64,000 bases of DNA from the NCBI GenBank assembly GCA_964611205.1, contig CAZSZB010000002.1:74609-138608 (forward strand). Direction: 5' to 3'. This DNA comes from an uncultured Candidatus Saccharibacteria bacterium. Its GTDB lineage: Bacteria > Patescibacteriota > Minisyncoccia > Phycocordibacterales > UBA918. Below, piece after piece: positions 33,360 to 36,784 of this stretch. Each line of letters starts with the position of its first letter. Positions within the stretch are counted from its first letter, which is position 1. Made by a program: the position numbers and the translations under genes. The notes under the pieces are model-generated. The model saw nothing but the letters and a program-made list of their open reading frames with translations. It was not told the origin of the DNA and made no database searches.

Positions 33360-33695
33360 TTAGCGAGGAAAAGTTTTGCTAAAATCACTATCAGTCTTAG
33401 CTGCATCAAGCTCTCCCTTAAGACCGAAGGTTCCAGCAGCTATAGATAAAATAGATAAAGCGGAAATCATAACCAGTAAGCCAACTATACCCCAAATGAT
33501 ATGTCTTCTACCTGTTGCTCGCGCTTCTACACTTTCAGAGTTTTTAACATACTCAAATAATCCGTAGAGAAAAACCAGCAAAGCAACCGCCAACATTAGC
33601 GTAATCAGAGGATAGAGAATAAACTGGTTTATTTTATCTAAAAAACCTTGAGCGGCGACAATATGGCTATCTGCGTAAGCAAAATTTATTAACAT
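33360..33695 (-). CDS. T4SS-pilin-like (TrbC/VirB2-like) small protein, paralog 1
   Basis: 111 aa. Helix 1 is ILYPLITLMLAVALLVFLYGLFEYV, then a charged turn (NSESVEARATGRRH), then helix 2 IIWGIVGLLVMISALSILSIAAG. Confidence 0.45.
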   Translation of the reverse strand: MLINFAYADSHIVAAQGFLDKINQFILYPLITLMLAVALLVFLYGLFEYVKNSESVEARATGRRHIIWGIVGLLVMISALSILSIAAGTFGLKGELDAAKTDSDFSKTFPR

Positions 33696-33749
33696 AAATG
33701 ACTTTGTATCTAGTACCTTCTAATCAAGAAGATACTTGATCATAACCAT

Positions 33750-34133
33750 CTAACGAGTGTTGGAAGTTGGAACGTTAGGAATATTCTGGATGTTCTCTTG
33801 GTTAGAAAAACCGAGACCACCAGCAATCAGGTTCACAATACCAAAAATAGAAACCATCACCACAAAGCCAACAATCGCATACAGCATAAGTTGTCGACCT
33901 TCTTTTTGCTTCTCAGGATCATGGCCGCCTAAGATAAAATATTTAAATACTCCATAAATAAACATCAAAAGAGCAATGGCAAATACTAATGGAATCAATG
34001 TGTTGTTAATAAAAATCGAGATATCATCCATAAAAGTATTAATCTGACCGAACTGAGCCAAAGTTATTACTGGAGCCAACATAAGGGCAAATCCGCCCAA
34101 AATCATACTTATTTTCTTCATATATTTTTTCAT
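33750..34133 (-). CDS. T4SS-pilin-like small protein, paralog 2 (signal peptide)
   Basis: 127 aa with a signal peptide, LIPLVFAIALLMFIYGVFKYFILGG...EKQKEGRQLMLYAIVGFVVMVSIFGIVNLIAG. Confidence 0.45.
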   Translation of the reverse strand: MKKYMKKISMILGGFALMLAPVITLAQFGQINTFMDDISIFINNTLIPLVFAIALLMFIYGVFKYFILGGHDPEKQKEGRQLMLYAIVGFVVMVSIFGIVNLIAGGLGFSNQENIQNIPNVPTSNTR

Positions 34134-34200
34134 TATTAATTTACTTTATTATACAAGAAAATCATTGCTTAAAGCCAAATAATTCTCAAATTGTGAATAT

Positions 34201-34461
34201 CTAAAATAGAGAGTTTTGTAGGATTTTTAAAATTCCCCAAATCCCAGACATAATCACTAGGGCAATGACGCCAGTGATAGCTAATTGTTTTCCTTTCTCA
34301 ATACTAGTTGGATCGTCAGAGTGTATAATCCAAGCATTGATTATACCCCAAGCTATATAAAGAAAAGTAACAGCAAATAACAGAGGTATTATAAGTGAAA
34401 TAAAACCAATAAATATATCCACTAAACCGGTAAAATCTTGTGCTCGATTTAGATTTCCCAT
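34201..34461 (-). CDS. T4SS-pilin-like small protein, paralog 3
   Basis: 86 aa. IIPLLFAVTFLYIAWGIINAWI...IEKGKQLAITGVIALVIMSGIWGILKIL. Confidence 0.45.
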   Translation of the reverse strand: MGNLNRAQDFTGLVDIFIGFISLIIPLLFAVTFLYIAWGIINAWIIHSDDPTSIEKGKQLAITGVIALVIMSGIWGILKILQNSLF

Positions 34462-34465
34462 ATTT

Positions 34466-34912
34466 TTATTTTAAGATTGAATCTACTGTACCGCTAATAA
34501 TAACCATCAAGGCTTTCGCTCCCAGGATTATAACCGCTCCTAAAAGTGAATATAATATAGCTCGGTGGGCCTTTTGGACAGTATCGACGTTACCTCTGGC
34601 AGTAACATAGAGGAAACCGGCGTAAATGATAAAAAAGACTATTATGGGTATGGCAAATATCATCACAATATCTAGAATGATATTAAATAAATCAGGGATA
34701 GAACTTACATCTTCCCTTAAAGGATTATTGAGCCCAGTTGGTCGTTCCTCTACTCTAGGTGAATAATCAGTGCCTCTAGGGCTACCATCAGTACCTGATG
34801 GAGAATAATCAGTGCCTCCTCCAACAGCCAATACTGACTGAGTTGAAAAGAAAGCTAAAAGCACTATAAAAAATATTTTAGAGATTGAAAAAAATTTCAT
34901 ACTAATATTCAA
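34466..34912 (-). CDS. T4SS-pilin-like small protein, paralog 4 (signal peptide, Pro/Gly-rich linker)
   Basis: 148 aa with a signal peptide, a GTDYSPSGTDGSPRGTDYSPR repeat, then IPIIVFFIIYAGFLYVTARGN...QKAHRAILYSLLGAVIILGAKALMVII. Confidence 0.45.
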   Translation of the reverse strand: MNISMKFFSISKIFFIVLLAFFSTQSVLAVGGGTDYSPSGTDGSPRGTDYSPRVEERPTGLNNPLREDVSSIPDLFNIILDIVMIFAIPIIVFFIIYAGFLYVTARGNVDTVQKAHRAILYSLLGAVIILGAKALMVIISGTVDSILK

Positions 34913-36209
34913 AGGTTAATTTACGAATAGCGTCCGACACTGCATTATCCACCCGACTTCTACCAGATACCACATCTTCTACCATAGTAGCAAATATTTC
35001 ATTGCTGATTTTAGGATTTGGATCAAGCCAACCGCGAGCCACTAAAGCAGCTTTGGTTATCACCTGCCGGTAAGGACTAACGTCTTCTATGGTCAACGCT
35101 GTTCGCAGAGGTGAGGCCATATTCAACGACTGAACTAGGGCAGGGGCATATTGTTCTGAAGCCAGCGTTAAGGCAGCTGCGTAAGCTCCCTGTTTGTTAG
35201 TGGCGGCAGTAGGAATAGCGAATCCATAGAAATCACCATAGGTACGGAAGACTGTGGCTGAAGAACCTTGAGGTATGGTGGAGACATCAAAATTCAAATT
35301 TGGGTTTTTATCGGCTATGTCTCTAACCTCAGAACCAAAACCAAAATAAATTGCTAAATCTTCGGCAATAAAAGCATTCTTAGAACTAGCTTGGGCTCGA
35401 TTCCAAGTATAAAGTGGGCTGGCAGTGTCACTAAAGCGAGTGAAGAAATCCAAAGAAGCCATTACTGGTGGTCTGGCAGAGCTGGAGTCAGCATAGTTCA
35501 TCATTACTTCATAGCCTTTTTCGTCCTGGGTTACTAGTTTACTCCCAGACTGCATCGCTAAACTCATCAAAATAGCTTTAGCATTATCAATGTTGCTAAA
35601 CTCTCCCATAGCAACGGCACTTTGAATAATATTACGACTAGTGTCCCGGATGGTTAAACTTGGTACGACTTTGCTCAGCAGTGTTTCCCAATTACTAGGT
35701 GCCGTTGCGATACCTCCAGTAGCAAAAAGATCACGGTTCCAGTACATAATTAGCGGATCGATAGCAAAAGGAATAGCGTAAACACCATTAACCATCATAA
35801 AAATCTCTGCCCCATCTATATAAGTATCCCTGAAGGCTCTCTCAGATAAAGAAGTGTACGGTATCGGTGTTAATTTTGCTCGATGCTTTACTAGACTATC
35901 TGCTTTAAGAATAATCAAATCTGGAGACCGCCCCTCTGCAACTGCATTAACAAAAACATCATCAAAAGATCTCTCGTCTATGTATTGATATTTGACTACA
36001 TTAAAGTCAGGACTATCAATTGATATCTTGTCGAAAATATTACCCATCACCGATGGATTAAGGGTGCCCCAAATAACTACTTGATCACCGTAAGTATAGT
36101 TAGCTTTTTTTATAGAAGGACTGTAGGTTTTAACTAAAATGAGAGCGAGAATCGCCAAGAAGACGAAGATTCCTAAAAGAGCTATTTGAAATGGTCTGAT
36201 GTTTGTCAT
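34902..36209 (-). CDS. membrane-anchored extracellular solute-binding protein (SBP family 1, MalE-like); no permease or ATPase nearby
   Basis: An N-terminal TM anchor, then VVIWGTLNP...PDLIILKADS...YAIPFAIDPLIMYWNRDLF, typical of family-1 sugar SBPs. The 3' end overlaps the start of pilin paralog 4 by 11 nt, implying translational coupling. Confidence 0.6.
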   Translation of the reverse strand: MTNIRPFQIALLGIFVFLAILALILVKTYSPSIKKANYTYGDQVVIWGTLNPSVMGNIFDKISIDSPDFNVVKYQYIDERSFDDVFVNAVAEGRSPDLIILKADSLVKHRAKLTPIPYTSLSERAFRDTYIDGAEIFMMVNGVYAIPFAIDPLIMYWNRDLFATGGIATAPSNWETLLSKVVPSLTIRDTSRNIIQSAVAMGEFSNIDNAKAILMSLAMQSGSKLVTQDEKGYEVMMNYADSSSARPPVMASLDFFTRFSDTASPLYTWNRAQASSKNAFIAEDLAIYFGFGSEVRDIADKNPNLNFDVSTIPQGSSATVFRTYGDFYGFAIPTAATNKQGAYAAALTLASEQYAPALVQSLNMASPLRTALTIEDVSPYRQVITKAALVARGWLDPNPKISNEIFATMVEDVVSGRSRVDNAVSDAIRKLTFEY

Positions 36210-36214
36210 ATATA

Positions 36215-36784
36215 TTATGGTTTACGAAAAGCTAATCCATAATGATGATCGCCAGCATCGAACTCTCTTTCCAGCACTAAACCAGCTGTTTCGCATAGAG
36301 CCATAGCTTCATCCTTATCTACTACCTGATCGGCTTGTGGTCCCATTCCAGAAAAAGAGTTAGCCCAGTCGATTACAAACAACTTACCACCGTTACGTAG
36401 GGTACGGAATATTTCCTGTAAAGCTATTTCTTTCTGTTCAAATTGAAAAAGAGAATTAACCAAGATTCCAGCGTCTAGTATTCCTGTGGGTATCTTAGTT
36501 CCTTCAATCTCCTCGACATCTGACCATAGCGGATCAACATTAGATAAGTTTTTCAATCTTACTAAGTCACCAATTTTCTCAACTAACTGCTTTTGTATCT
36601 CGCAAGCATAAACACTACCCTCATCACCAACTAATTTTGACAAAGTTTCTAAAAAATAACCCGAGCCTGCTCCGAAGTCGGCTACTTTATCTCCAGGTCT
36701 TAATTGAAAATGAGTAGCAACCACAGAGGGCACCACGAAACGGCCTGAAAAAAGAGGGTTACCAGAAGAGGTATTTGAATCCAT
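36215..36784 (-). CDS. class I SAM-dependent methyltransferase
   Basis: VADFGAGSGYF (motif I), the acidic loop ACEIQ, and LRNGGKLFV (motif post II). 189 aa. Confidence 0.7.
   Translation of the reverse strand: MDSNTSSGNPLFSGRFVVPSVVATHFQLRPGDKVADFGAGSGYFLETLSKLVGDEGSVYACEIQKQLVEKIGDLVRLKNLSNVDPLWSDVEEIEGTKIPTGILDAGILVNSLFQFEQKEIALQEIFRTLRNGGKLFVIDWANSFSGMGPQADQVVDKDEAMALCETAGLVLEREFDAGDHHYGLAFRKP

Follow-up and report, generated by a model that had tools for sequence, protein, structure and literature searches.

VirB2-like pilins (PF04956/PF18895) have been detected in 1,948 Patescibacteria assemblies, and 441 tandem 'VirB2 arrays' comprising 2 to 11 genes, either adjoining or one gene apart, with an average identity of 25% were speculated to help these bacteria adapt to various hosts (Quinonero-Coronel et al. 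2025, PMC12102498). According to the same survey, VirB4 is encoded in 2417 of 3035 Patescibacteria assemblies (80%), and in about 800 of the 1948 assemblies with pilins, these were encoded away from virB4. In Southlakia epibionticum ML1, an essential array (SEML1_0014-0019, PF18895) was described within a type IV secretion system (T4SS) gene cluster (Wang et al. 2023, PMC10633639). The function of the Patescibacteria T4SS and pilins has been designated as 'completely unknown' (PMC11665869), and a role in uptake was floated (PMC11665869, PMC12857230). Here, a 64,000-nucleotide stretch (the window) of the 165,888-bp metagenomic contig CAZSZB010000002.1, originating from an ultra-small member of the Patescibacteria, was analyzed with respect to a minus-strand gene cluster encoding an S-adenosylmethionine (SAM)-dependent methyltransferase, a membrane-anchored solute-binding protein (SBP), and four tandem pilin-like proteins. 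Since tandem pilin arrays were already published (PMC12102498, PMC10633639), the array as such is not new. These two publications make no mention of an SBP or methyltransferase alongside Patescibacteria pilins, and a full-text literature search for an SBP in connection with Patescibacteria VirB2 also returned none; the conserved, sometimes fused methyltransferase-SBP-pilin operon appears to be an undescribed variant.

The minus-strand gene order is gyrA, SAM methyltransferase, SBP, P4, P3, P2, and P1, the pilin-like proteins P4 to P1 occupying array positions 1 to 4. The four tandem two-helix open reading frames (ORFs) and the fifth copy reported in the preliminary description of the window were found as follows, together with the other elements of the cluster:

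36215..36784, minus strand: class I SAM-dependent methyltransferase, first operon gene; 189 aa, no transmembrane (TM) helix; Pfam Methyltransf_25/11/31
34902..36209, minus strand: SBP, membrane-anchored, MalE-fold; 435 aa, N-terminal TM helix at residues 6-28, followed by a tether of ~15 residues
34466..34912, minus strand: P4, array position 1; 148 aa from TTG 34912; PF18895 25.2 bits (E 2e-5), TrbC 19.1 bits
34201..34461, minus strand: P3, array position 2; 86 aa, no signal peptide; PF18895 19.8 bits (E 9e-4)
34134..34200, minus strand: conserved spacer, putative internal promoter; TATAAT at 34148-34153, ATAYWCACA box ~38 nt upstream
33750..34133, minus strand: P2, array position 3; 127 aa; PF18895 41.4 bits
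33360..33695, minus strand: P1, array position 4; 111 aa, no signal peptide; PF18895 28.6 bits
13921..14385, minus strand: P5, solitary fifth pilin; 154 aa; PF18895 40.7 bits; Cys-x-Cys-N-F motif

The family PF18895 (T4SS_pilin, gathering score 26.6 bits) was the best Pfam match of all five pilin-like proteins, with P1, P2, and P5 exceeding the gathering score. P3 and P4 fell below this score, but their matches were significant, and both were tied to the family by an iterated hidden Markov model (HMM) and by conserved orthologs. Furthermore, PF04956 (TrbC) gave weak matches for P4 and P1 and stronger ones for orthologs, and the Mbov_0395 family of pilin-like conjugal transfer proteins was the best NCBIfam match for four of the five, under its cut-off. 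Hydropathy analysis revealed two hydrophobic helices flanking a short basic/Gly loop in each of them, preceded by a signal peptide in P2, P4, and P5. Pairwise identity among the paralogs ranged between 22% and 39%; P5 is the closest paralog of P4 (39.7% identity) and resembles the position-1 type. On the basis of these profile matches, the five proteins are members of the VirB2-like (PF18895) group, as had been proposed earlier.

P2 represents the best-conserved subunit (61–80% identity among the 120 homologs listed) and is a candidate for the major subunit; the orthologs suggest Met5 (34121) as its start. The AlphaFold2 (AF2) model of P2 features helices at residues 2-27 (signal), 31-68, and 73-105 (hairpin), with a core pLDDT between 87 and 94. 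A Foldseek comparison of this model with the PDB yielded no match at E<=0.001, which is uninformative because the query is a bare helical hairpin. P4 consists of a signal peptide, a low-complexity N-terminal extension of ~45 residues with GTDYSP repeats, and the two-helix hairpin. A 42-nt internal direct repeat in P4 (34740-34830, residues ~33-52; 19-nt core, 95% identical) encodes the GTDYSP(S/R) repeats, which are predicted to be extracellular. The 11-nt overlap between SBP and P4 noted previously depends on the TTG start at 34912. An alternative ATG at 34900, located 1 nt past the SBP stop codon (TAGTATG), yields a protein of 144 aa with a canonical signal peptide and agrees with the starts of the orthologs; judged by these features, it is the more likely start. 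The overlap is therefore doubtful, but the translational coupling of SBP and P4 stands with either start. The start of P3 follows 4 nt past the P4 stop codon.

The SBP matched SBP_bac_1 with 52.9 bits (cut-off 26) and also SBP_bac_8. Its AF2 model (pLDDT 91.5) shows the TM helix, the tether of ~15 residues with low confidence, and a two-lobe domain, for which Foldseek returned maltose, maltodextrin, and oligosaccharide binding proteins with probability 1.0 and a TM-score of about 0.7. The best sequence relative in the PDB is 4r9f, a manno-oligosaccharide SBP (E 3e-13). The SBP family is of uniform size (~430-440 aa), with more than 1,262 matches in a database clustered at 90% and, at E<=1e-30, 1483 cluster representatives at the 50% identity level. 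The N-terminus follows the pattern M-x(1-6)-F-[QE]-[IL] and precedes the TM helix, on the cytoplasmic side; RPFQ or RPFE was present in 54 out of 85 related SBPs, and F-Q, F-K, or F-R in the others. A conserved x-F-[QE]-[IL] motif in front of the TM helix is unusual for a mere membrane anchor. Reading this N-terminus as a class III (prepilin) signal was rejected, as Pro or another residue precedes the Phe and Gly is missing at position -1.

Neither an ATP-binding cassette (ABC) permease nor an ABC ATPase was detected in the 64-kb window or within ~10 kb beyond each of its ends. Moreover, screening of 86 related loci (1.19 Mb) for ORFs with ABC-ATPase motifs (Walker A and LSGGQ) identified a single one, encoding an SMC protein. 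The description of the SBP as an orphan, originally based on the window, thus also applies to ~20 kb of flanking sequence and agrees with the related loci.

To place the cluster among relatives, GTDB species representatives were scanned, at least 580 species with the SBP being found, and the best 80 loci were analyzed. These originated from Kaiser-, Nomura-, Campbell-, Zambryskiibacteria, and other Paceibacteria and featured SBP identities between 36% and 55%. Genes of the relatives were labelled using HMMs built from the window proteins, and about 85 Paceibacteria species were examined overall, virtually all of them carrying the operon. The order methyltransferase-SBP-pilin, with three to seven pilin genes, was near-universal in the analyzed loci, and a same-strand pilin was located within <=500 nt 3' of the SBP in 76 out of the 78 loci with sufficient sequence. 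Median gaps amounted to 8 nt between methyltransferase and SBP and 3 nt between SBP and the first pilin (<=25 nt in 72 out of 76), compared to 227 nt between gyrA and methyltransferase (54 species). On both sides of the SBP, the junctions were mostly gaps of 0-10 nt or 4-nt overlaps. The methyltransferase gene was situated directly upstream of the SBP in 69 of the loci examined, with a 4-nt overlap (ATGA) in 25 of them. Coupling of the SBP to pilins in 76 out of 78 species, with the median gap of 3 nt, and the natural fusions described below support the functional tie between the two that was suggested in the preliminary description.

The module was also found intact under other upstream contexts (L043, L062, L066, L070, L080, L089, L091, and L093), with 12 and 8 genes inserted between gyrA and methyltransferase in L089 and L093, respectively, and the methyltransferase was kept in loci without adjacent gyrA. 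As judged from these comparisons, the operon belongs to the conserved core genome of the class Paceibacteria. In some Kaiser- and Nomurabacteria (L017, L021, L022, L023, L025, and L027), an extra pilin gene lies between gyrA and methyltransferase. The position-1 pilin of L064 is 310 aa long and carries a Ser/Asn-rich extracellular N-terminal domain of ~200 residues. With this long domain in view, the first pilin seems to be a general 'display' subunit.

In-frame fusions of SBP and pilin, present in at least three protein clusters, represent the strongest evidence for physical cooperation between the SBP and the first pilin, since proteins joined in this way can be expected to act together (Rosetta-stone argument). 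The C-terminal extension of P0311 (579 aa) matched PF18895 with 30 bits (residues 504-564), above the gathering score, and a search with P0311 retrieved two more fusions of full length, the 568-aa P0409 with 8 member sequences and the 560-aa P0410. Each of these two was recovered from an NCBI metagenome-assembled genome as well as from an independent Logan assembly, and translation of the gene call reproduced the protein exactly in every case. The methyltransferase gene lies in front of both fusion genes with a 4-nt overlap, and four more pilins come after them. The fused pilin parts scored 50-51 bits against the array HMM built in this study, and their best BLAST matches were all position-1 pilins as well as P5 of the window, which was matched by the pilin parts of all three fusions (E 1e-10 to 1e-11). 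The predicted topology comprises an N-terminal anchor, the SBP outside, helix 1 leading inward, the basic loop inside, and helix 2 leading outward, by which the fused SBP is membrane-anchored at both ends. P0311 shares 47-48% identity with unfused SBPs but 42% with the other fusions, which suggests more than one fusion event.

The tandem paralogs themselves could be regarded as a variation cassette, i.e., as interchangeable copies providing antigenic, functional, or host-range variation, as was also supposed in the preliminary description. Their low identity of 22–39% and the precedent of the VirB2 arrays of Bartonella and Anaplasma, cited in PMC12102498, are in line with this view. However, among 34 four-gene arrays, 123 out of 136 best cross-genome matches were found at the same array position, and the median best cross-genome score was 124.5 bits, compared to 51 bits for the best paralog within the same genome. 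The share of same-position proteins among the top-40 cross-genome matches was 40/40 for P4, 36/40 for P3, and 27/40 for P1. Each array position features its own conserved motif, typical length, and signal-peptide status, the signal peptide being absent from half of the copies in a position-specific manner. P2 is even more conserved than the SBP, its range of 61–80% identity extending to genomes in which the SBP is only 51-54% identical, on the same contigs of 226 kb, 229 kb, and 166 kb. Furthermore, no DNA-level repeats that could act as recombination substrates were found between the pilin copies. The paralogs are, by these measures, ancient, position-specific orthologs under strong purifying selection; positional orthology and fixed order favor a heteromeric assembly with a set composition over a role in antigenic or host-range variation, so that a variation cassette is considered highly improbable.

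The same applies, to a slightly greater degree, to the assumption that the proteins represent holins or another family of small two-TM membrane proteins matching PF18895 by coincidence. Two of the five proteins score under the Pfam gathering score and no match to a solved pilin was obtained, which would be compatible with such a coincidence. On the other hand, PF18895 is the top match for all five and is exceeded in gathering score by three, Mbov_0395 is the best NCBIfam family for four, and orthologs match PF04956 TrbC. No PHROG family was matched at E<=0.01 by any of the five, therefore no holin match was obtained, and the Pfam output did not contain a holin family either; moreover, the genes reside in a chromosomal core-gene setting and not in a prophage. 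For this clade, both the variation-cassette and the holin readings are essentially excluded.

The methyltransferase gave only generic class I matches, its nearest solved structure (3dh0) being uncharacterised. Candidates for its target, as read from the sequences, are the x-F-[QE]-[IL] motif of the SBP and the basic loops of the pilins. Regarding transcription, the spacer in front of array position 3 had a median length of 99.5 nt in the 34 four-gene arrays, with a perfect TATAAT in 19 of them and at least five of six matching positions in 30. The combination of TATAAT and ATAYWCACA in this spacer points to a separate promoter for the best-conserved subunit, and the sequence pattern suggests that this promoter is probably also stronger. 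The ATAYWCACA box is possibly a regulator site. Use of CACA-N34-41-TATAAT as a regulon marker was rejected, since this pattern was not enriched in the window (4 matches vs 1.3 expected).

The observed family membership, fold, operon structure, conservation, positional orthology, and fusions, and the finding of no ABC or T4SS genes nearby, can be united in one explanation, to which we assign about even chances: the module would form a single sugar-recognising surface machine, namely, an assembly of several different pilin-like proteins to which a glycan-binding receptor subunit is attached. Transcription of the operon would start at a promoter of its own and proceed through the genes for the methyltransferase, SBP, pilin 1, and pilin 2, an internal promoter, and the genes for pilin 3 and pilin 4. 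The first three junctions of the operon are translationally coupled. The four VirB2-like hairpin proteins would hold fixed, non-interchangeable roles. On the outer face of the membrane, the SBP would dock on the extracellular N-terminal extension of pilin 1, a physical complex of SBP and pilin being assumed for the unfused state as well. Co-translation of the SBP with pilins 1 and 2 would provide roughly equal, low amounts of a receptor or priming complex, and pilin 3, with its own promoter and the best conservation, would serve as the bulk subunit. The set might be assembled or used by an MPF-FATA-like T4SS (VirB4/VirB6/PrgI) encoded elsewhere in the genome. The SBP would recognise an oligosaccharide, plausibly a glycan of the host envelope, and this element could serve host-surface recognition and adhesion or the capture of a host-derived saccharide. 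The cytoplasmic methyltransferase would probably modify a cytoplasm-facing part of one of the module proteins.

Within this explanation, the module is probably a detached pilin module of the T4SS-like apparatus of Patescibacteria, the link to a T4SS in this genome being drawn from family homology and the literature, and its pilins may form filaments. The preliminary description suggested the SBP as the tip or adhesin of such a filament. Because the SBP possesses its own TM anchor and a tether of only ~15 residues, and because the fusions are doubly anchored, a membrane-proximal or base/priming position fits at least as well as the tip.

Several observations weigh against a surface machine built from these pilins. 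VirB4, VirB6, and VirD4 were not found in the 64-kb window and its flanks of ~20 kb (83 kb of the contig), and VirB4, VirB6, and VirB3/PrgI were not found within +/-10 kb in spot-checked related loci either. The flanks of the window and the large unlabelled ORFs beside the arrays of relatives yielded only UvrB, a P-type ATPase, an Na/Ca exchanger, and SMC in this search. The P2 family profile yielded chance-level matches against all PDB sequences, without VirB2, TraA, or TrbC among them. The TM anchor retained by the SBP sits uneasily with a place in an extruded filament, and the fusions are rare (3 clusters among about 1500). Furthermore, adjacency alone is weak evidence because the whole region is highly syntenic in the clade (gyrA 93%, LactB 90%, S1 87%), and in one locus (L089) a non-conserved ABC_tran/BPD_transp_1 pair lies 5 kb from the module.

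The last two points also favor an ordinary SBP of an ABC importer, with the transporter encoded elsewhere and the position before the pilins resulting from operon hitch-hiking in a streamlined, syntenic genome. The clear SBP_bac_1/MalE fold with sugar SBPs as relatives in the PDB fits this explanation, and orphan SBPs are known in many bacteria. Family-1 sugar SBPs of monoderms are, however, normally encoded beside their permeases, no ABC ATPase belonging to such a system was seen in the 86 loci, and the module outlives the loss of its gyrA flank. In addition, gaps of 0-10 nt or overlaps of 4 nt flank the SBP in most species, and in-frame fusions to a pilin were found in independent assemblies and divergent lineages, which makes an ordinary importer unlikely.

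By analogy with TRAP/TTT-type transporters and with SBP-permease fusions, the module could also constitute a membrane channel that does not form a filament and is composed of four to seven different two-helix proteins, to which the tethered SBP delivers a host-derived saccharide. A fixed subunit set with positional orthology implies a defined stoichiometry, and the short tether and the double anchoring in the fusions keep the SBP at the membrane. Fusions of SBPs in ABC systems join a translocator subunit, and ABC genes are missing nearby. Moreover, Patescibacteria depend on import for most of their building blocks, and uptake through the T4SS has been proposed (PMC11665869, PMC12857230). Such a conduit is nevertheless rather improbable: the helices are almost purely hydrophobic and Gly-rich and offer no polar pathway, the operon contains no energy-coupling component, and the homology is to pilins, not to transporters. 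Hardly more favorable is our view of an SBP-dependent, ABC-independent uptake or recognition machine, in which the tethered receptor would hand a host-surface or host-derived glycan to a conduit of pilin hairpins, be it a channel or a T4SS-driven pilus; we regard it as a quite unlikely extension. If it were true, the essential T4SS/pilin apparatus would at least partly be an import device that senses nutrients or the host, equipped with its own substrate receptor and with a methyltransferase for its maturation.

The boundaries of the operon and its surroundings are defined by the following features:

36880-39354, minus strand: gyrA, ORF upstream of the methyltransferase
36831..36869, minus strand: intrinsic terminator hairpin directly 3' of gyrA, upstream module boundary; 18-bp perfect stem followed by a U-tract
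36792..36797, minus strand: TATAAT box, putative operon promoter read from the sequence; 7 nt before the methyltransferase ATG
33297..33328, strand not applicable: strong hairpin, downstream module boundary; 14-bp stem, 9 of its pairs being GC; located between the pilin array and the gene pair that converges on it from downstream

In the preliminary description, gyrA was linked to the methyltransferase by a tiny gap. This part could not be maintained: the spacer measures 95 nt and contains both the terminator hairpin (dG -37.8 kcal/mol, z -7.2 vs 200 shuffles) and the TATAAT box, and the adjacency is background synteny. Because terminator and TATAAT intervene and the gap to the methyltransferase is long and variable across species, gyrA probably represents a separate transcription unit, with the operon predicted to start at the methyltransferase. 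Membership of gyrA in the operon was consequently rejected, its adjacency also being lost in several lineages that keep the module. An operon mRNA starting from this putative promoter would possibly be leaderless or near-leaderless.

Downstream of the array, a convergent plus-strand gene pair (31433-33280) encodes a 421-aa SPFH/Band7-like membrane protein and a TM protein of low conservation, which has 191 aa here and ranges between 130 and 390 aa with 5-8 TM helices in relatives. The pair has a GC content of 0.50 vs ~0.40 around it and adjoins the array in almost every relative, even where gyrA is not a neighbor; it may belong to the module. Pfam provided just a weak Band_7 match for the pair, and no VirB6 likeness was seen.

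A Pfam scan of every window ORF of at least 110 aa indicated that the remaining window genes are otherwise of the housekeeping type, comprising Dus, SerRS, DprA, TopA, RelA, ParB, ClpB, IF-2, RbfA, S1, Pth, signal peptidase I, FtsA, FtsZ, TrxR, GlmS, TsaD, and others, in addition to RNase P RNA and nine tRNAs. A horizontally acquired island was rejected on account of these housekeeping surroundings, the conserved synteny, and the just mildly lower GC content of the pilin genes. At a distance of 2 kb from P5, a giant plus-strand ORF of 1960 aa (16515-22397) showed a weak match to Hydrolase_2 (cell-wall hydrolase) and could encode a protein of the cell surface or of host interaction, or else a hydrolase resembling VirB1. 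A free-standing, intergenic LAGLIDADG homing-endonuclease-like ORF (11013-11660, plus strand) adjoins tRNA-Leu (10830-10912). On the minus strand, two neighboring large ORFs at 60689-63704 (493 aa without family and 515 aa with a Lamin Tail Domain), adjoined by an S24-like peptidase, may represent another surface-protein cluster.

The function of the Patescibacteria T4SS and pilins is an acknowledged open question, and the apparatus is essential in the sole genetically tractable species (PMC11665869). Across Paceibacteria, a pilin set is genetically bound to a receptor with a sugar-binding fold and to a methyltransferase, which offers a testable handle on the function of T4SS and pilins in the Candidate Phyla Radiation (CPR). 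A confirmed role of the SBP in the apparatus would make it the first component for recognition of a substrate or host to be identified in a T4SS-like system of the CPR.

Compared to the published VirB2 arrays of Patescibacteria (PMC12102498, PMC10633639), the window array shares PF18895 membership, tandem divergent pilin genes (four at 22–39% identity here and 3-7 genes in relatives), the chromosomal location in a monoderm CPR bacterium, and the absence of a relaxase context. It differs in that VirB4, VirB6, and PrgI are missing within 83 kb, and in that its pilin genes are preceded by those for a SAM methyltransferase and a co-translated MalE-fold SBP. Versatility in host range was speculated in PMC12102498, whereas the window-type copies are positional orthologs under purifying selection; the published speculation is corrected in that the arrays, at least in Paceibacteria, appear as fixed heteromeric subunit sets and not as variation cassettes. 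With Gram-negative VirB2/VirB5 T4SS pili and with the minor-pilin priming complexes of type IV pili (T4P) and type II secretion systems, the module would have in common a bulk pilin accompanied by low-abundance priming or adhesive subunits, and the VirB2/TrbC architecture of signal peptide, two helices, and basic loop is shared by its pilins. In contrast to VirB2/VirB5 pili, the module lacks a VirB5 homolog, possesses an SBP-fold accessory protein with a TM anchor and several VirB2-like subunits, and belongs to a monoderm.

Fusions of SBP and translocator are found in ABC importers such as OpuA and GlnPQ, where the SBP is covalently held at the membrane together with its partner. In the fusions reported here, the partner is a two-helix protein of the pilin family and not a permease domain with 5-6 TM helices, and an ABC ATPase is absent.

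To our knowledge, the bindosome of Sulfolobus is the only established functional coupling between SBPs and pilin-like proteins. In this system (Bas; Zolghadr et al. 2011, PMC3047682), sugar SBPs at the cell surface are likewise organised with several small pilin-like proteins (BasABC). The bindosome relies on class III signal peptides of the type IV pilin kind and on a T4P-type ATPase and platform (BasEF), and its SBPs still serve ABC transporters. By comparison, the module described here comprises T4SS VirB2-type hairpins and an SBP without class III signal, and an assembly ATPase or platform of the T4P type (BasE/BasF) was found neither adjacent to it nor elsewhere in the window or the related loci. 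The likeness to the bindosome is one of analogy in logic and not of homology; should the SBP turn out to belong to the apparatus, the methyltransferase-SBP-pilin module would represent a bacterial, T4SS-type counterpart of this archaeal system.

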